Below, piece by piece: positions 13,257 to 60,213 of a stretch of DNA of 64,000 bases; within the stretch, counting starts at the first letter, position 1, and each line of letters begins with the position of its first letter. The stretch lies in IMG/VR virus record IMGVR_UViG_3300033074_000711, positions 64,001 through 128,000 of that record; one strand, written 5' to 3'. Both the position numbers and the translations under genes were made by a program. This stretch comes from a virus (taxonomy: Duplodnaviria; Caudoviricetes). Below the pieces are notes generated by a model. That model searched no databases and was not told where the DNA came from. It was given only the letters and a program-made list of their open reading frames with translations.

Positions 13257-14159
13257 TTAAAAATTAAATGTTTTTGATAGTTGTTTTTGTAAAAATATCA
13301 TTCTTTGTTTTTCTGTTCTACTAACATAAAATGTTAAAATTTGATATAAATTCCAAACATCTATTGTTTGTGGGTCAACTTGCATTAGACTCATCGCTCT
13401 TATTGCAAATTCTGCTCCTCGTAAACCAACTATATTAATTGCTTTATTAAATAATTCTGTTGTTGCTTTTTTGATTTGCATTAATTCGACTTTTTGTTTA
13501 AATACCGGTACTTGTTCTGTGGCTACTTCAATCGCTTCTTTAATACTATTTATATCAAATTTGTTATTGTGTAAAAAATTAATACTACTTAATTCTTTAC
13601 TCCTAACAATCATTCCGTTTGTACAAACTGCTCTAATTAATCCAAATTCAACCTTAACTCTTGTTGAACCATCAAATGAATTTGTTATAAATGTACTAAC
13701 ATAATTTTCTGAATCACCGTCTTTAATTGATAATTCTGGAAAGCTTAAATGTAATGTTGACCGCTTTGGAGTAATTACTGTGTGTTTTTTATGTATTGTA
13801 TAACCGATTTCTTGCATGTTGTCTAAAATAGGCATTAAGATGTCTCTATTTTGAATTAAATTGTAGTGGTTACTCATAAATGATAAAAACTCACCGTTTG
13901 AATTATACAATGCATTTTTCTTAGGGTTTATATATTCACCAGTACTTAATAGTATTTTAGGTGATTTATCTACATAAACGTCAATACAAAACTCATTCAG
14001 CAATTTTGTTACTTCATCATCACCTTTATAAATATCTTTTGTTATTACGTTATTATTTGGTGATGTAATAATATTACCAAACTCATTAATCATTAATGAT
14101 GATTTTTCTGTTTGGTTTTTTGTTTCTAAATTTCTTTTTACTTCTTCGTATGTTAACAT
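13257..14159 (-). CDS. DUF932-family protein
   Basis: YNLIQN, ITNSFDGST, RAVCTNGM. Confidence 0.85.
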   Translation of the reverse strand: MLTYEEVKRNLETKNQTEKSSLMINEFGNIITSPNNNVITKDIYKGDDEVTKLLNEFCIDVYVDKSPKILLSTGEYINPKKNALYNSNGEFLSFMSNHYNLIQNRDILMPILDNMQEIGYTIHKKHTVITPKRSTLHLSFPELSIKDGDSENYVSTFITNSFDGSTRVKVEFGLIRAVCTNGMIVRSKELSSINFLHNNKFDINSIKEAIEVATEQVPVFKQKVELMQIKKATTELFNKAINIVGLRGAEFAIRAMSLMQVDPQTIDVWNLYQILTFYVSRTEKQRMIFLQKQLSKTFNF

Positions 14160-15298: not shown

Positions 15299-16291
15299 TT
15301 ATAACTCACATTGGCCACCAGCACATGCTAACTCACCTTGTAAATCTGTTTCATCATCATCTTCTATAATTTTAGTTATATCAACTTCTTTTAAATGTGA
15401 CATCAAATCGTTATATTTTTCTTCTGTAATAGATTCAAACGGTGCTTGAATATATGTACCACCATCATAAGGAAGAACCGAAATACCATTATAACCATTT
15501 CTATTTTCCCATAACCATTTTCCAACAGATTCCCACTCATCATCTTTTATTGATATTGTAACACTAACATTATTATAATTAGAACCTTTGTTATGACCTT
15601 TCATAACCCATTCGGTGTTAAATTTTTTAACACGGTCTAATAATTTAAAAACACTTTCGGTTCTTATTTTAGCTGTTTCGGGTGCTTTTAATGGTATTGA
15701 GATAACTGATTGTAAATGTGGTTTAAAATAATCGTCTTCTAATAACTCTTTGTGTTTTTTATTTAAATATTTATATATAGCTTCATTTTTACCAACTCTA
15801 ATTCTTCTAATATAATATTTATCGTGATATGCGTGTATACCACTTGAAGTACCAAGAACTAAAGCTGATGTGCCACTTGGTTTAACTGTTGTTGTTCTCG
15901 CTGATGTGTTTATATTTAATATCTTAGAAACTCTTTTATTTTCTTTCACTACAATTTTACTGGCTTCTTCTAAATTCAAATTATCTAATGCACCACTTGC
16001 GATACCAGTTATACCAACACCAATTAACGCATCTTTTTCTGTTGATTCTTTCCATACACTTCTTAAATAATGAAAATCTGTATAGCCAGCTTGTAATGTT
16101 GCTATAAACGATGCCACTCTGGCTCTGTTATTAAAATCTTCTTGATTTTCTATGTTGCTAGCATTTATTTCAACTAGATTACAAAATGAAAATGGTTTTA
16201 AGGAAATTTCTGAACAATCTACATTCAAAATACTGTTATCCAAGTGTGTTGAATTTTGTTTTGTGTGCTTTTTAATACTATTTATTTTCAT
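15299..16291 (-). CDS. nrdJ: Class II (B12-dependent, monomeric RTPR-like) ribonucleotide reductase, C-terminal fragment with a 25-aa N-terminal intein-C piece
   Basis: CSEISL..FCNLVE, TTVKPSGT, QAPFE, C-terminal CAGGQCEL. Confidence 0.92.
   Translation of the reverse strand: MKINSIKKHTKQNSTHLDNSILNVDCSEISLKPFSFCNLVEINASNIENQEDFNNRARVASFIATLQAGYTDFHYLRSVWKESTEKDALIGVGITGIASGALDNLNLEEASKIVVKENKRVSKILNINTSARTTTVKPSGTSALVLGTSSGIHAYHDKYYIRRIRVGKNEAIYKYLNKKHKELLEDDYFKPHLQSVISIPLKAPETAKIRTESVFKLLDRVKKFNTEWVMKGHNKGSNYNNVSVTISIKDDEWESVGKWLWENRNGYNGISVLPYDGGTYIQAPFESITEEKYNDLMSHLKEVDITKIIEDDDETDLQGELACAGGQCEL
16217..16291 (-). other. Split intein C-fragment (25 aa, MKINSIKK...SILNVD followed by Cys+1)
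   Basis: Precedes CSEISL, which continues the NrdJ motif TNP-C-SEISL. Confidence 0.65.
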
Positions 16292-17597
16292 AATTTTCCA
16301 TTAATATTTTTATTAAATTATCAACAGTATTATAATATTTTACTATTGATTTTATTCCTATTTTTGCATTTATTTTATTTATTTCACGCTTTCTTATCAA
16401 TAATATCTCATTTAAATTTTGTTTTTTTAACATACTAATAACATAATTTAAAGACGTATCTAATATCCATTTATCTAAAAATATAATTATTGATGTTTTT
16501 CCCATTTTAATATGTGTTGTTTTTTTCTTTTCTTTTCTAATACACACTTTACATAATTTTTCCGATTCTTTTTTTATTTTATTTATAATATTATCACAAT
16601 TTTTACATTTAATATTATAATCATATTTTAATAAACTTTTTTTAAAATTTGTTTTAGCTAGTGATTCTGCTCTCTTAATTTTACTTTCTTTTGATAAATT
16701 TTGTTCTCTTATTTTAGCTCGTTGTGAAGCCTTATCATATAAAGTTGGGTCATCTATATATCTTTGTTTTTGTGAATTTGATAATTTTTTTCTATATTCT
16801 GGATTTTTTCCTAATTCTTTTAACTTTTTACTAATTTTTTTACGTGTTTGTTCAGTAACTATTGCTCCATATCTTGGATTTAATTTACCAACATTAGTTC
16901 TATTAGTATTTGGTGAATTTTTCCAATTTTGTAATTTATTTTTTAATTCTATACTAACTTCTTCATCAAAGTTTGTTACAATTTCATATAAAATGTTATT
17001 TTTATTAAAATATTCTATAACTAGTTTATATTTATCGGTTATTATAAAGCTTTTATCTTTTACTTCTAATAATTTAACTAATATGTTATCTTTATAAATA
17101 AAAAAGTCAGGTTTATAGTTAAATTTATTATCTATATTAAACATATATTCTTCATATCGTATGTTGTTTATGCCATATTTATTTGACAATATATGATAAT
17201 ATAAAAATTCATTAGATGAGCGACAATAACATGAAACACCATCGATTTCAAACGAACCACTACAGCCACGACTGTTAAATTTTTTTAAATGTTTTTTAGC
17301 AACATCACTTCTATTTGTATTTTTATAACTAACAGACATAAATTCATTTGAATATTTTTTATAATTAACGTTAGCTTGTTCAAAATTCATATTCTTTCTT
17401 AAAATCCAATATGATAAACTACACTTTGAATTAGAACTATTAATAAATTTAACTATCTCAATAGCATCATTTTTATTTATATTAAAAATATTTATTTGTA
17501 AATAATTTATTGTATTAATTAAAAATTTAGAAAATCCTTTTCTTATTTTTTTATTTGCTAAAAATTCTATCTTATTTTGCAAAACATCATCATTCAT
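16278..17597 (-). mobile_element. Free-standing homing endonuclease (PD-(D/E)XK type with NUMOD3-like DNA-binding repeats) inside fractured nrdJ
   Basis: RSSNE, YE..., YKPDFF...LLEVK; GKLNPRYG...EQTRKKIS; lies between the two nrdJ halves. Confidence 0.8.
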
Positions 17598-17636
17598 AAC
17601 AATATCTCATTTTAATATATTAATAAATATATAAAA

Positions 17637-19112
17637 TTATAAAATATCATCACATATTTCTAAATCTTTAGCAAATTTTTTACCAAATTGTGTGTTGATG
17701 ATTTCATATGGATAAAAATATATTGATTCATTTATTTCAATTTTTTCTTCACCAAATGTTTCGTCACAACAATAATTAGCAAAAAAATTAAAGTTCGGTG
17801 TTGCAGTTAAATCATAAACTGGTTCATTATAATTTAATTTTTCGACTTTAATAATATTTACTATCCTATTATACCCTAATACATTAACAATTTCACCATT
17901 ATTTAAATTGTTGATTGTATTTTGTACAGAGATTTCTGAAAAATCTTCTTTATAAAACTTATGGGTAATATTAGTTAATTGAAAACAACCATTATTAAAA
18001 TAAATTTTATATATATTATCATCTTTATTTGTTATTCCACACCAATTTAATTCAGATTCAAATAACTCACCATATTTATCTTGTGTAATAATCTTAATAT
18101 TTTTATCACTATTATATATTTTTGATAGTTTTTGTATTTCTACAAATCCTTTATTAGTTAATACTTTTGTTGAACCAACAACGCAAGGATTTGTACCAAC
18201 TTCCTTATCATTAGAAAATAAAAATCCAGGTTCACCTGATTTAGATAATTCTATTTTTTTCCAAAGTTTGTTAAAATCTTCTTCTTTAATTCTATGTCTT
18301 AGTAAAACAACACTGTTATTAGCTCTTGCTCTCTGTGGATTTAACTCCCACCAATTACCGAATTTACACGATAACATATCTTCATCATCAAAACTAAATA
18401 ATGAAATTAATGCGGCTCTCCTTATTCCACCAGCTAATACAGCATCTGCTATATAACAAATTATATCATGTGCTTGTATTGATTTTAATTTTTCACCTTC
18501 ACCGACACTATCTAATATTTTTTGAATATTATGTAAACAATCTTTTAATGGTTGGGGGCCTGGTGCTTTACCACCACTTGTGATTAATTTAGCACCTTTT
18601 GGTCTAATATCACTAAAATCAAAATTTGGTAAATGACTTCCGTTAAAATATGCATTCATTAAAACTTTAACAGCATCAGCCCATCCTTCTATACTATCAC
18701 CTATCAAATATCTTTTTAATTTACCCGGTTTTTTTATAGATGGTAATTTTTTAATATGGTGTTTTTGAACGCTAACACCAACACCAGAACCACCTAATAA
18801 TAAAAACATTATTTCTTGAAATGATTCTACTGCATCTACTGGTAAAAAAGAACAATTGTAAATTCTATTTGGTGAAATTTCTATTGATTTACCAGCAAAT
18901 TGTAAACTTCGCATTGATGGTAAAACTTTTTTATCATAAACATATTTATATGCTTCTTCTATTTCATCTTTTAAATTTTGATGTTTTTTTAAATGCATTT
19001 CTTTATTTCTTGTAACTAATTCATACCAATTTTCTCTTCTTTTTTTATGTGGTATGTATTTAGCATATTTCATATGTACTATAATATCTGATAAAATTTT
19101 ATTAGCTATCAT
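17637..19112 (-). CDS. nrdJ: Class II ribonucleotide reductase, N-terminal fragment fused to intein-N
   Basis: KYAKY..RRENW, LPSMRSLQFAG, YNCSF, GGIRRAALI, GEPG...GTNP then intein. Confidence 0.92.
   Translation of the reverse strand: MIANKILSDIIVHMKYAKYIPHKKRRENWYELVTRNKEMHLKKHQNLKDEIEEAYKYVYDKKVLPSMRSLQFAGKSIEISPNRIYNCSFLPVDAVESFQEIMFLLLGGSGVGVSVQKHHIKKLPSIKKPGKLKRYLIGDSIEGWADAVKVLMNAYFNGSHLPNFDFSDIRPKGAKLITSGGKAPGPQPLKDCLHNIQKILDSVGEGEKLKSIQAHDIICYIADAVLAGGIRRAALISLFSFDDEDMLSCKFGNWWELNPQRARANNSVVLLRHRIKEEDFNKLWKKIELSKSGEPGFLFSNDKEVGTNPCVVGSTKVLTNKGFVEIQKLSKIYNSDKNIKIITQDKYGELFESELNWCGITNKDDNIYKIYFNNGCFQLTNITHKFYKEDFSEISVQNTINNLNNGEIVNVLGYNRIVNIIKVEKLNYNEPVYDLTATPNFNFFANYCCDETFGEEKIEINESIYFYPYEIINTQFGKKFAKDLEICDDIL
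17640..18185 (-). other. Split intein N-fragment (182 aa)
   Basis: Block A CVVGSTKVLTNKG, block B-like LTNITHKF, block F EPVYDLTATPNFNFFAN, then a 44-aa tail. Confidence 0.85.
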
Positions 19113-56400: not shown

Positions 56401-59400
56401 GAAAAAAAGTAACAGACAATATTTAGAAAAAGTTAATGTCTTATTAGAGGATGTTGATAATACTATTTTTAATATTACCAACATTCCTCAAATATTATAC
56501 AGTGGTAATAATCATTTTTTAATTTATGGCTCAGATAAATTAAAACAAAATTCTGAAATAGCTATAGAAATTTTAGATAGTAATAATAATACAATTTATT
56601 ACGAAATTTCAAAGGACTATAATTTTGGCGGTAATAGATTAGTGTCAATAAAAATATTTGATTATGTTGAAAATGGTTTAGCAACATTGACAATATTAGG
56701 TATATTAAACACAAATGATGTTGAATGGAAAAATAAATATAATGTTAAAACAACAAGAAAAATAATAGTTGATAAAACATTAAATAATAACAGTGATATT
56801 ATTTTTAAAAATTTTCCAACAGCTAGTATTAATGAAGTTTTTAGAACAGATTTAAATACAGAAAATTCAACAATTTATTCAAATTACAACTCAGGTTCGA
56901 TTAGCACATATATTGCAACTAATGTTAAAAATACCAATTTAAATTATAGTACAATGAAATTGGTAAGTGGTTCGCTTAATGAAAAAATGTTAAATTCTAA
57001 AATTGAAATATATAGTGGTAGCATAACACATAGTGCAATTATAGATAGGATAGTTAATGAAACTTATTGTTATATAAAACCAAATTATTTAGAAAATGAT
57101 ATTGTAAAAACTTTTGACAATTGTAATTATAATATACAATACATTAATAGTACATATCAAGAAACATTTTTATCATCATCTTATGCTGAAATTGTATTAA
57201 ACAATTTAGAAACATTATCAGGTAAAATAGATAAAATTAAAGTCTTTTCAAAAAATATAAATAGAAATGAAGATTATAAGTTATTAGGAGATTATCCACT
57301 ATTATCATGGAATAATTATTATGCGTGGAGTGGTTCATTATTAATAGATACTGGTGTATTAAAAAAATATTGGAGTTCATATTATGATAATGGTGGTTTA
57401 ATCTCCACAAATTACATTATAACAGAAAATGATAATGTCTTATTAAATTCTATACAAATTAATACAGAACCACATGAAAGTACCGCATATGCTTATATAG
57501 TTAATAATACACCTTTTACTGTTATAAAGGGCAATAAATATGTTTTAGAATTTGATAGAGCAGTTTTATTAAAAGATTTATATAACACTGATTGTAATTT
57601 TAAAATAAGTGCATATGGCACAAGCTTATATAATTCAGATGAAACATTATTATACGAAGAATATAATATAGATAATACTGTTATATCACCAACATATTTG
57701 GGTAAAAAATTCATAGTGTTTGAACCAAATAAAACAGGTACATTATTTATTAAATTTATTTTTGGTGCTGGCACATGGTATTTATCTAATTTAAAATTAT
57801 ATGATTATTTTGATGTTGGTATAAATCCGAATAATACAAAATTATATATTCCTATTAATAATTTTAAAAGAAATGAACAATACGTTTTTAAAATAGAATA
57901 TAAAAATATAAATAATTTATCATCACAAAATTATTCTGAAATAAATTTACCATTAAATTTTATAGGTAATCCTAAATACATACAGTTAGATGATAATGTT
58001 TTAGACGGTAAATTAAAAATAGGTAATAATATAAATTCAAATGGTATAGAAATATCAGGAAAAGAAACAAACGGTTCTTATATATCATCAGTTGGTTACA
58101 AAGGATATTATAGTGCTAGTAATAATATAGGTGATTCTGGATTTTTAATTTATAGTGGGTCTGTTTTAAATACATTAACAAATGAGTATGAAAATGGTGT
58201 TGGTTTAGAATTACACGGTGGTTATAAATCAGGTAGTATGAGATTTAAAGCAGATGGTCTAAATAGTTTTTTAGAAATAACTGGTTCAATATTTGCTGAA
58301 AATGGTTATTTTTCTGGTTTGTTAAGCGCAAGTACGGGACACATTGCTAGTTTTTATATAAATGAGACAAGCATAACTTCTAATAATAATACTAATACAT
58401 CAAGATTTATTTTAAGTCAATCTGCTAATATTAGAGATATTGGTTTGCATTTAAATGATGGTAATAATGTTAATAGATTACAAATAGGATTAGTAAATAC
58501 AACAGGTAGCAAAATATCGGATTATGGTAATATAGCATTAACAAGTAGTGCAACTAATTCAGATAATATGGCGACATTATCAAAATGGTCGATTTTAGAT
58601 GATACTACACCTGGTATTGCTAGATTAGATATGAGTTCTTATACATTAACGAGTGCCAGTATTTCTATAAATTCAATACTAATTAATGAATTAGATTTTA
58701 TACCTGCTGGTGGTTATTTATATACAAACAATACTAATAATAATTTTAATTCTGTACCATCTGGTCAATATATATTAAGTGTTAAATCATATCAATCTTC
58801 TGGAAAAGATAGAGCAATTTTTAAAATAATAATAAAAGATGATAGTGATAATGTGTTATTTAATAGCAATAATTATGTAACCAATAGTGATGAATATAAT
58901 TTACATCAGTTTGCTTTTACAATAAGTGAAACAAAAAATTTAAGAATATATTATTATTGTTCTTTATTAAGTTATAATTCTCAATTTTATTTATTTGATA
59001 CAAAAATACAACCATATGTTAGTAGAATGAGTATAACAGAACGTGGTTTACTTTTATCAACATCTCCGAATAAATATATATTATTATCAGATTTTTTTAA
59101 TTTAATCGGAATTAATGAAATTCAAACTGATATTATATATGCAAATAAAATTATTTCTGATGATTTAGTTAAAATTTCTATAAATACTGATAATACAATT
59201 TTAAATTATTTTAATATTACTGGCAGTTTTGTTGATAATAATAATAATGATATTTCAAACATAAGTGCTAAGTGTTTTGATTTTTGGATATCAAAAAAAC
59301 CATATGGTCAAATAAGCACAATAGGCACATCTAATATAGAATTAAAAAATTTATATAATTGTGGGTTAATAACAAATTATACAACCAGTTCGGTCGAAGA

Positions 59401-59560
59401 TTATATTTATAAATTTAGTAATGTTAGTCAATCTGGCTTAATCAGTTCTAGTATAAATAATATATTTTCATTTTCAATTTATTCTAGTTTACCAGTAGGT
59501 GGTTATATAAACATTTCATATAATAATAAAATTTATACAGAATATTTAGATATTGCTTAA
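56393..59560 (+). CDS. Large virion structural/tail protein
   Basis: LKQNSEI.IEILD, LETLSGKI..IKVF, many SGS/TGS motifs. Confidence 0.6.
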   Translation: MLEKKSNRQYLEKVNVLLEDVDNTIFNITNIPQILYSGNNHFLIYGSDKLKQNSEIAIEILDSNNNTIYYEISKDYNFGGNRLVSIKIFDYVENGLATLTILGILNTNDVEWKNKYNVKTTRKIIVDKTLNNNSDIIFKNFPTASINEVFRTDLNTENSTIYSNYNSGSISTYIATNVKNTNLNYSTMKLVSGSLNEKMLNSKIEIYSGSITHSAIIDRIVNETYCYIKPNYLENDIVKTFDNCNYNIQYINSTYQETFLSSSYAEIVLNNLETLSGKIDKIKVFSKNINRNEDYKLLGDYPLLSWNNYYAWSGSLLIDTGVLKKYWSSYYDNGGLISTNYIITENDNVLLNSIQINTEPHESTAYAYIVNNTPFTVIKGNKYVLEFDRAVLLKDLYNTDCNFKISAYGTSLYNSDETLLYEEYNIDNTVISPTYLGKKFIVFEPNKTGTLFIKFIFGAGTWYLSNLKLYDYFDVGINPNNTKLYIPINNFKRNEQYVFKIEYKNINNLSSQNYSEINLPLNFIGNPKYIQLDDNVLDGKLKIGNNINSNGIEISGKETNGSYISSVGYKGYYSASNNIGDSGFLIYSGSVLNTLTNEYENGVGLELHGGYKSGSMRFKADGLNSFLEITGSIFAENGYFSGLLSASTGHIASFYINETSITSNNNTNTSRFILSQSANIRDIGLHLNDGNNVNRLQIGLVNTTGSKISDYGNIALTSSATNSDNMATLSKWSILDDTTPGIARLDMSSYTLTSASISINSILINELDFIPAGGYLYTNNTNNNFNSVPSGQYILSVKSYQSSGKDRAIFKIIIKDDSDNVLFNSNNYVTNSDEYNLHQFAFTISETKNLRIYYYCSLLSYNSQFYLFDTKIQPYVSRMSITERGLLLSTSPNKYILLSDFFNLIGINEIQTDIIYANKIISDDLVKISINTDNTILNYFNITGSFVDNNNNDISNISAKCFDFWISKKPYGQISTIGTSNIELKNLYNCGLITNYTTSSVEDYIYKFSNVSQSGLISSSINNIFSFSIYSSLPVGGYINISYNNKIYTEYLDIA

Positions 59561-59568
59561 GGAGTTCT

Positions 59569-60213
59569 ATGAAAAAAGACGAATTTACATATGATATTAA
59601 AAAAGTTCACGCAATTTTAAGGGGTGAAGAACCAACATTAAATATTTATCAAAATAATTTTGTAAAGAGTTTCGATAAATTAGAAGATAAAATTAATATA
59701 GATGGTGTTGAATATGAAGTTTTTACAGATAGTGAAAAAAAATATATAAAAAGAAATGGTGTAAATGTAGATATTAAATTTTTTGAAAATTCTGGTGTTT
59801 CAAAACTAACATGTCCAAAGTGTAAAAAAATATTTTCACATAAATTTGATAAATTTTATTACTCAAAAACAAATATGTGTTACTCATGTTTTATAAAATT
59901 TCAAACAGAGATGTTGATAGAAGATAAATGGTACGAATATGAAGAGGAACAAATTTTAAAAAGTAAATTATCATTTGCAAAAGAAACGCTACAAACGGTT
60001 AATGATATTTTAAATGGTGGTATAAAAAAACAATATTCATATGTTAAAAATGAATCTGGTGAAGTTGAATATTGGGAAAATGAAAAATATTCAGAGGAAT
60101 TAGAATTTTTTGATAAAGAAAAAAAATATTTAGAAAATATAATTGAATTAATTCAAAAATATTTAAATAAAGAAATAACAGCAGAAGAATATGATGAAAA
60201 AATAAAAAAATAA
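59569..60213 (+). CDS. Zinc-binding hypothetical protein
   Basis: CPKC...MCYSC. Confidence 0.65.
   Translation: MKKDEFTYDIKKVHAILRGEEPTLNIYQNNFVKSFDKLEDKINIDGVEYEVFTDSEKKYIKRNGVNVDIKFFENSGVSKLTCPKCKKIFSHKFDKFYYSKTNMCYSCFIKFQTEMLIEDKWYEYEEEQILKSKLSFAKETLQTVNDILNGGIKKQYSYVKNESGEVEYWENEKYSEELEFFDKEKKYLENIIELIQKYLNKEITAEEYDEKIKK

Follow-up and report, generated by a model that had tools for sequence, protein, structure and literature searches.

Split inteins of phages are best known from the fractured genes NrdJ-1, NrdA-2, gp41-1 and IMPDH-1, in which the associated nucleases are of the GIY-YIG or Vsr-like kinds (Dassa et al. 2009, PMC2677866). In ribonucleotide reductases (RNRs), inteins are most often inserted immediately before the thiyl-radical cysteine, on its N-terminal side, as was reported for NrdA and for most of the contiguous inteins of these enzymes (PMC2677866). 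Natural split inteins with an atypical break, such as AceL-TerL, GOS-TerL, VidaL and PolB16, belong to the S1/S2 types, with an N-terminal intein fragment (IntN) of 15-37 aa (PMC11766414, PMC13014065); in a 2025 review and in the primary papers of 2025-2026 the natural atypical splits lie near the N-terminus only, and the S3 and S11 splits are treated as artificial. In the literature searched, with subscription-only papers lying outside that search, we found none that describes a natural intein broken ahead of its last strand. The subject of the present work is a fractured class II RNR gene (nrdJ), with an intein divided over its two halves and a nuclease gene between them, in a 64,000-nucleotide stretch of phage DNA (hereafter the window), which comprises bases 64001-128000 of the 155,930-bp IMG/VR virus record IMGVR_UViG_3300033074_000711, with an estimated completeness of 67%.

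The reading that we prefer, and hold to be fairly probable on the sequence evidence, is that a natural S11-like split intein trans-splices the two RNR halves. A mobile element of intein and nuclease would have entered the TNP/C site of an RTPR-type nrdJ (here and below a slash marks the splice point or the break), with the gene fractured in two. The N and C proteins would associate, and the short strand SILNVD would complete the Hint fold of the N protein; in a class-1 trans-splicing reaction Cys1, together with the His of block B and the Asp of block F, would form the thioester, which would be attacked by Cys+1, the future thiyl-radical cysteine, the terminal Asp would cyclise instead of Asn, and the product would be a 614-aa NrdJ. 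The 439-aa TnsA-like PD-(D/E)xK and NUMOD3 nuclease would be the homing endonuclease that spreads the element. The wider proposal, namely that this may be the first natural family of S11-like split inteins, with trans-splicing, a terminal Asp, an essential C fragment of perhaps six residues, and a tail and a leader as a new docking or anti-aggregation device, we regard as evenly balanced.

The interrupted reductase gene

Three consecutive open reading frames (ORFs) lie in the AT-rich DNA of an uncultured phage, on the minus strand of the window at 15299-19112 (Table 1). The N ORF runs through RNR sequence to ...EVGTNP and then into the intein start CVVGSTKVLTNKGF (CVVGSTKVL...), and the C ORF has 25 residues before CSEISLKPFSFCNL (CSEISL). 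These ORFs, with the 439-aa nuclease between the RNR halves, are those described in the original prediction, whose extein boundaries (19112-18186 and 16216-15302) turned out to be exact, so that residues 1-309 of the N ORF and residues 26-330 of the C ORF (309 + 305) give a protein of 614 aa. The seamless joining of the exteins that it had called for was borne out as well: the joined exteins align with uninterrupted NrdJ proteins without a gap at the junction GTNP/CSEISL, with an identity of 63% to that of Microcystis phage Mel-JY01 (68% for the N-extein against the N part of the same protein) and of 58% to that of Vibrio phage VPs20.

Both halves match the RTPR equivalog TIGR02505, with scores of 141.7 and 139.4 bits; being halves, both stay under the cut-off of 340 that applies to a whole protein. 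In the alignment of the C ORF with the RTPR of L. leichmannii (1L1L), C26 corresponds to Cys408, E28 to Glu410 and C37 to Cys419, and the CAGGQC end is placed on the C-terminal Cys pair; in the N half, YNC stands opposite the NNC motif with Cys119. The roles of Cys119, Cys408, Glu410, Cys419 and the C-terminal Cys pair in RTPR are established knowledge, Cys408 of the L. leichmannii enzyme being the thiyl-radical residue. By profile and by catalytic residues, the host gene is an RTPR-type, adenosylcobalamin-dependent class II RNR, and because C26 is aligned with Cys408, the break falls exactly before the radical cysteine, which is also the +1 nucleophile of the intein; the break at the thiyl-radical cysteine that had been claimed for this gene is thereby upheld.

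The N ORF and the nuclease ORF share a frame but are separated by a TAA and then an in-frame TGA. The C ORF lies in a different frame from the nuclease ORF, with whose end it has 14 nt in common, and upstream of the C ORF its frame is interrupted by many stops. Because of the in-frame stops and the frame change, these are three genes and not a single gene misread. That an assembly or gene-calling artefact has broken up what is really one contiguous intein-containing gene is therefore extremely improbable, even in AT-rich, homopolymer-rich DNA, which is error-prone: the two in-frame stops and the frame change would all have to be erroneous, and the nuclease begins at a start of its own, its protein being complete and folding well in the AlphaFold2 (AF2) model. 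The same layout occurs, moreover, on independent contigs (L003/L004, L005, L012), and the three-ORF form of it on independent contigs from other samples, which makes unlikely the misassembly that the original prediction had named as a danger to its claim. An alternative genetic code or readthrough fusing the ORFs was also considered, and was ruled out by the TAA and TGA after the N ORF and by the frame change of the C ORF.

Split position and splicing residues

The N ORF is aligned with residues 4-143 of the 151-residue fused NrdJ-1 intein (PDB 8ubs), which is all of it but the last strand, the alignment stopping 5 residues short of the intein end. For comparison, 16 canonical C-terminal intein fragments (IntC) from other metagenomic fractured nrdJ genes were used, which have the form M..KI....EDVYDITVEDNHNFFA[ND]GILVHN/C. 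The N ORF already holds the equivalent of this segment through ...VYDLTATPNFNFFAN (...NFFAN, block F), so that the N ORF encodes blocks A, B and F together, and the share of the C ORF in the Hint fold is SILNVD only, at the position of G-ILVHN. As aligned, the break is between blocks F and G, that is, at the S11 position and not at the endonuclease-insertion site. There are extra pieces on both sides of it: the N ORF continues beyond block F with a 45-aa tail, and in the C ORF SILNVD is preceded by a leader of 19 aa. The earlier description of the N ORF as GTNP plus intein was right in placing the intein start after GTNP, and understated the rest, since the N ORF has nearly the whole intein and the tail besides. 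Likewise, the split intein flanking a free-standing nuclease gene, as it had been described, stands as an arrangement of the kind reported by Dassa et al. in 2009, but the split is not an ordinary one, with its break between F and G, its Asp end and no penultimate His; as for the known fractured-gene pattern that had been invoked, the nuclease is of a kind other than the two reported there, and the N ORF carries a conserved extra tail.

Five members with this split are known, from four contigs (obtained in viral and metagenome scans) and two database proteins. In the window, the RNR is of the RTPR type (TIGR02505) and the junction is ...DNSILNVD/CSEISL. The two database proteins, P0002 (N half, 492 aa) and P0005 (C half, 335 aa), are RTPR-like, with ...NESILNVD/CVEATL; they are counted as one member, are known as proteins only, and may be separate loci. 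The N-extein of P0002 is 71% and the C-extein of P0005 56% identical to those of the window, and P0002 is 58% identical to the window over intein and tail. A 286-kb phage contig (L003, equal to L004) has an RNR of the NrdJ_Z type (TIGR02504), a nuclease of 419 aa and ...NKSILNVD/CGEI. The remaining two members, L012 (nuclease of 353 aa, ...DKSILSVD/CSEIAM) and L005 (...YYQNSILNVD/CGEQ), have RNRs that resemble the one of L003, so that the layout is found in two RNR families, RTPR and NrdJ_Z, the last two being placed in the second family by resemblance only. The RNR of L005 (4098-8366, plus strand, contig Ga0256842_1000303) is laid out as four consecutive ORFs with three split inteins between them, and none of the breaks contains a nuclease gene. 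The atypical F/G type is seen at the first break, where the ORFs are 91 nt apart; at the other two, the split inteins are canonical (...TVSHN/STSM and ...GIPTHN/TVNL).

The intein core has 135-137 aa in the five members, with pairwise identities of 43-61% among the four aligned. Invariant in all five are Cys1 (in the window Cys310 of the N ORF, directly after GTNP, in the block A motif CVVGST), the block-B His (B:10), the block-F Asp (F:4, in VYD), SIL[NS]VD and Cys+1. The +1 Cys and the seamless junction are those of a class 1 intein. Other positions have changed throughout the family: Thr B:7 is Asn in all five (NITH in the window, NLKH, NSKH, NKQH and NAKH), and block G ends in Val-Asp in all five and not in the canonical His-Asn. 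The three residues that as a rule help in the last step of splicing are altered in a coordinated way, namely F:13 from His to Phe or Tyr (Phe in block F of the window, VYDLTATPNFNFF), G:6 from His to Val and G:7 from Asn to Asp. A pattern scan of the IMG/VR DNA for SIL[NS]VDC-x-E gave the already-known contigs and chance hits only, and the family is therefore rare. Eight metagenomic nrdJ C halves (P0011, P0042, P0060, P0031, P0044, P0067, P0111 and P0120) start 3-22 residues before C/x-E-I with leaders that are neither canonical IntC nor of the SILNVD type, e.g., MNIT/CCEIAL and ...STVVHG/CEISL.

Table 1. Features of the fractured nrdJ locus, in window coordinates
Feature	Position	Strand	Length	Remarks or basis
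N ORF	17637-19112	(-)	491 aa	
Nuclease ORF	16278-17597	(-)	439 aa	
C ORF	15299-16291	(-)	330 aa	
N-extein, RTPR-type NrdJ, end ...EVGTNP	18186..19112	(-)	309 aa	TIGR02505 2.4e-41, PF21995
Intein core, blocks A, B, F	17775..18185	(-)	137 aa	alignment to PDB 8ubs and canonical IntC
Acidic tail after block F, net charge -7	17640..17774	(-)	45 aa	stop TAA 17637-17639
Basic leader of the C ORF, MKINSIKKHTKQNSTHLDN, net charge +3	16235..16291	(-)	19 aa	its ATG inside the 14-nt overlap with the nuclease ORF end
Block G strand SILNVD	16217..16234	(-)		in place of G-ILVHN of canonical IntC
C-extein, NrdJ, CSEISL...FCNL... to CAGGQC	15302..16216	(-)	305 aa	TIGR02505 1.2e-40; stop 15299-15301

Function of the divided intein, its tail and its leader

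Trans-splicing is preferred because the residues of splicing steps 1 and 2 are invariant in five divergent members; because the last strand SIL[NS]VD/C is fixed in spite of the variable leader before it; because the layout recurs in two RNR families and persists in L005, without a nuclease, beside two canonical split inteins; because the exteins are undegraded and no other RNR was found in the record; and because the nuclease family also occurs in canonical fractured loci of the NrdJ-1 type. Contiguous inteins that end in Asp or Gln, or that have no penultimate His, can splice, with Asp or Gln cyclising for Asn (PMC4031507), and the Val-Asp ending therefore does not exclude activity. Among the engineered S11 splits with a C fragment of 6 aa, 4 of 14 trans-splice, some of them at about 90-100% (PMC3620165).

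Several observations weigh on the other side. The remaining 10 of those 14 engineered S11 splits failed (PMC3620165); the window intein lacks the His of block F, the penultimate His and the terminal Asn, has Asn for the block-B Thr, and has Pro at the -1 position; the model that AF2 gives of intein and tail is poor, with a predicted local distance difference test (pLDDT) score of 56, and below 50 in the tail; the known members number only five; with a completeness of about 67%, the record may lack a second RNR; and an intein-less fracture at the same loop of another nrdJ gene (L035, see below) suggests that rejoining of the halves may not be strictly required.

The last of these points bears on the most serious alternative, in which the two proteins form an active RNR non-covalently and without splicing, and the Hint remnant, the tail and the leader are interaction modules only. 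There is a precedent in the NrdA of Aeromonas phage Aeh1, which is split by mobE and fully active, and in which the insertion-derived tails are essential (PMC3045599). The complementary charge of the conserved tail and leader, and the non-canonical residues of the last splicing step, would also suit such an assembly. However, a mere docking module would not need an invariant Cys1, block-B His and block-F Asp. The thiyl cysteine of an RNR is located at the tip of a finger loop inside the barrel, and the break in the window is at this very cysteine, where some 180 extra residues on Pro-1 should, to judge from RNR architecture, lead to a clash and preclude catalysis; the Aeh1 protein, in contrast, is split between two adjacent barrel strands, with its thiyl Cys away from the break. 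The phage of L005, for its part, has two canonical split inteins in the same protein and so relies on splicing. Taken together, assembly without splicing appears rather unlikely to us, though it is a better candidate than any of the remaining alternatives.

The intein-less locus just mentioned (L035:2743-5481, plus strand, in IMGVR_UViG_3300002036_000001) is an RTPR-type nrdJ in which the N ORF ends in GTNP and 9 aa, followed by a GIY-YIG ORF (PF01541) and by a C ORF with a conserved 19-aa leader and then CEIAL. The residue at the position of the thiyl Cys is apparently Gly, unless the loop is re-registered. Nine close relatives of this gene (L036-L044) are uninterrupted.

A gene that is dead or dying would be expected if the nuclease cassette had hit a contiguous intein near its 3' end and splicing had been lost, the phage then using the RNR of its host or one encoded in the missing third of its genome. 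The non-canonical terminal residues, the incompleteness of the record and the small size of the family, with its four contigs and two database proteins, would be in line with this. The state of the gene is not: the five members keep both halves open, the stop of the tail in the same column, the same last strand and the catalytic residues, although the cores of the four aligned members are only 43-61% identical, and at this base composition frames without constraint close after about 10 codons. Every catalytic Cys and Glu position of the exteins is retained in the fractured members, whose exteins are 51-68% identical to uninterrupted homologues, which among themselves are 50-75% identical. This lack of excess divergence, with the retained catalytic positions, argues against a decaying gene, and the split NrdJ is the sole RNR detected in the 155,930-bp record. 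A dead gene is consequently held to be quite improbable; the sequence conservation favours a working gene and cannot choose between splicing and non-covalent assembly, the two mechanisms that the original prediction had put forward.

The tail has 44-46 aa, with its stop in the same alignment column in all five members, and pairwise identities of 26-49% among the four aligned. At this base composition, the probability that a frame stays open for at least 44 codons is about 0.008-0.02, and since the tail is open to equal length five times in spite of it, it is under constraint. The leaders have 19-23 aa in four members and 19 aa in the fifth (L012), and vary in sequence; in the four members for which charges were computed, the tails have -2 to -7 and the leaders +1 to +4. 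As to their origin, the tail as a relic of the canonical IntN end is unsupported (z 1.1, 42 of 300 shuffles); the tail gave no signal against the intein core or the strand-F segment of its own protein, and the leader none against canonical IntC (z 0.7). Between the tail and the unit of strands F and G in canonical IntC there is a weak likeness (z 2.8, 18 of 2000 shuffles, without correction for five comparisons), and hhalign places the tail on canonical IntC in the expected register, not significantly.

This weak likeness is what could speak for tail and leader as a nested second, Hint-like mini-intein that must splice or assemble before the outer intein works. The likeness is not significant once the five comparisons are corrected for, and such a unit would have about 64 residues, far under the size of a Hint fold, with no T-x-x-H of the block-B kind in tail or leader and with inner junction residues that vary (Y, Y, I, V and I after FFA-x; N, E, K, N and K before SILNVD). 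A nested mini-intein is accordingly very improbable. On the trans-splicing reading, tail and leader probably aid docking or keep the N fragment soluble; docking of tail and leader by charge complementarity, or the shielding of an incomplete Hint domain, are ideas only.

The nuclease and the comparison with described systems

The nuclease has an N-terminal helical domain, a PD-(D/E)xK core (about residues 108-232, nt 16902-17276), NUMOD3-like helices, a Cys-rich segment and a C-terminal helical domain. Its relatives make up 105 representatives at 50% clustering, all of free-standing size, and the columns invariant in 40 of them are E130, E149, P163-D164 and E178-x-K180, with no invariant His. 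In the AF2 model (mean pLDDT 87.5), the best structural match of the core is the TnsA catalytic domain (1f1z; Z 8.3, 121 residues, root-mean-square deviation 3.1), and the match to I-Bth0305I has Z 6.3. NUMOD3 was detected in 19 of the 40 relatives, with a sub-threshold hit in the window protein; PF08722 is weak in 3 of the 40 and absent from the window nuclease, and a few weak TnsA-like or HSDR_N hits occur among the relatives. For the window nuclease itself, there was no Pfam family above threshold and no NCBIfam or PHROG family, no sequence match to any solved PDB chain, and no match in phage GenBank records, nor in IMG/VR with single-sequence patterns; its gene is single-copy in the virus record. 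By its invariant motif and the fold of its model, the protein is a TnsA-like PD-(D/E)xK nuclease with NUMOD3. It is not a GIY-YIG protein. An EDxHD/Vsr-like identity was rejected, for there is no invariant His and the nuclease domain precedes NUMOD3; the fold is shared at Z 6.3, and a common superfamily ancestry with the EDxHD family is possible.

In at least 10 further loci, relatives of the nuclease stand between the halves of an intein, and the family is therefore genuinely associated with inteins. This placement, and the occurrence of one intein type in two RNR families, lend indirect support to a putative homing activity that would spread the element. In the loci L013-L024, the relatives are shorter (263-362 aa), are without the N-terminal helical domain of about 100 aa, and reside in canonical fractured RNR genes, with hosts that include TNPC/C sites of the NrdJ-1 type and 'GGNP/C' hosts; for L021, L023 and L024, the simple ORF listing that was used did not show the IntC ORF that one would expect. 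A 12-base word, AAATGAGATATT, is found twice on the minus strand, at 16400-16415 in the 3' part of the nuclease ORF and at 17603-17618 just upstream of the nuclease start, and may be due to chance in AT-rich DNA.

The C ORF is immediately followed on the same strand by thyX (PF02511, 2.8e-51), and two ORFs past thyX the same gene string includes a DUF932 protein (PF06067, 7.8e-16; 13257-14159, minus strand). Scans for promoters and terminators gave the same as shuffled sequence. Just upstream of the window, at about bases 56950-60079 of the genome (L010:1451-4580, minus strand), the gene for the terminase large subunit is fractured as well: its N ORF has LLIIDE/C and a 30-aa IntN of the short AceL/GOS-TerL type, a 364-aa nuclease follows (PF08722, TnsA-like N, 2.4e-6), and the remainder of the intein is on the C ORF, up to its end at SHN/CAFIP. 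This nuclease has no detectable relation to the window nuclease at the sequence level. With the short-IntN split of terL and the F/G split of nrdJ, the Hint fold is therefore split atypically at either end in one and the same phage.

Split inteins are among the main tools of protein engineering, in which a very short fragment is prized, since it can be synthetic. In the reviews and primary papers up to 2026, the natural inteins with a short fragment have only a short N piece, and the short C pieces are engineered and often fail. If the trans-splicing reading is true, a natural family with a short C piece would fill this gap, with an unusual last-step chemistry (Asp, no helper histidines) and with the conserved acidic tail and basic leader as a new docking or anti-aggregation device; it would be a natural point of departure for linking synthetic peptides to the C-termini of proteins, and would represent a second way for a nuclease gene to break an intein. 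One family of TnsA-like nucleases serves both canonical and atypical fractured phage RNR genes.

Among the described systems, the engineered S11 inteins (Ssp GyrB, Ssp DnaX, Ter DnaE-3 and also Ter ThyX; PMC3620165) are broken, like the window intein, between their last two strands, so that of the intein fold the C fragment has the final 6-aa strand only; they are man-made from contiguous or canonical inteins, end in Asn and have no tail or leader, whereas the window intein occurs naturally, has Asp as its last residue and carries a leader of 19 aa before the strand. AceL-TerL, GOS-TerL, VidaL and PolB16 are, like it, natural, come from phage or metagenome DNA and are broken away from the endonuclease-insertion site, but near the N-terminus, whereas the window intein is broken near the C-terminus. 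With the inteins that end in Asp or Gln (PMC4031507) it has in common the non-Asn terminus and the loss of His G:6; compared with those contiguous inteins, it combines Asp, Val at G:6 and an aromatic F:13 in a split intein.

The Aeh1 genes NrdA-a/mobE/NrdA-b (PMC3045599) are likewise a case of an RNR whose catalytic subunit has been fractured by a homing endonuclease of the free-standing kind, with tails at the break and an overlap of the nuclease and downstream genes. In Aeh1, however, there is no intein and no splicing, the split lies between barrel strands and the nuclease is of another kind, whereas in the window intein blocks flank a break at the thiyl Cys. The window nuclease, with its E...PD...ExK, has the restriction-endonuclease-like core of TnsA (1f1z), I-Ssp6803I and I-Bth0305I, and the NUMOD3 DNA-binding motif is common to its family and to phage homing endonucleases; relative to the Vsr-like family (Dassa 2009, Taylor 2011), its domain order is reversed.

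Like the genes of Dassa et al. (2009), finally, the locus has a DNA-metabolism gene of a phage divided over two ORFs, with parts of an intein where it is broken, a nuclease gene standing free between the two ORFs and an overlap of the nuclease ORF with the downstream ORF. It differs from them in an IntN of 137 aa with a 45-aa tail and an IntC of SILNVD only, in its host, an RTPR-type NrdJ with the insertion point of NrdA, and in its TnsA-like PD-(D/E)xK nuclease. The general arrangement is a known one (PMC2677866); what differs is the position of the break, before the last strand.

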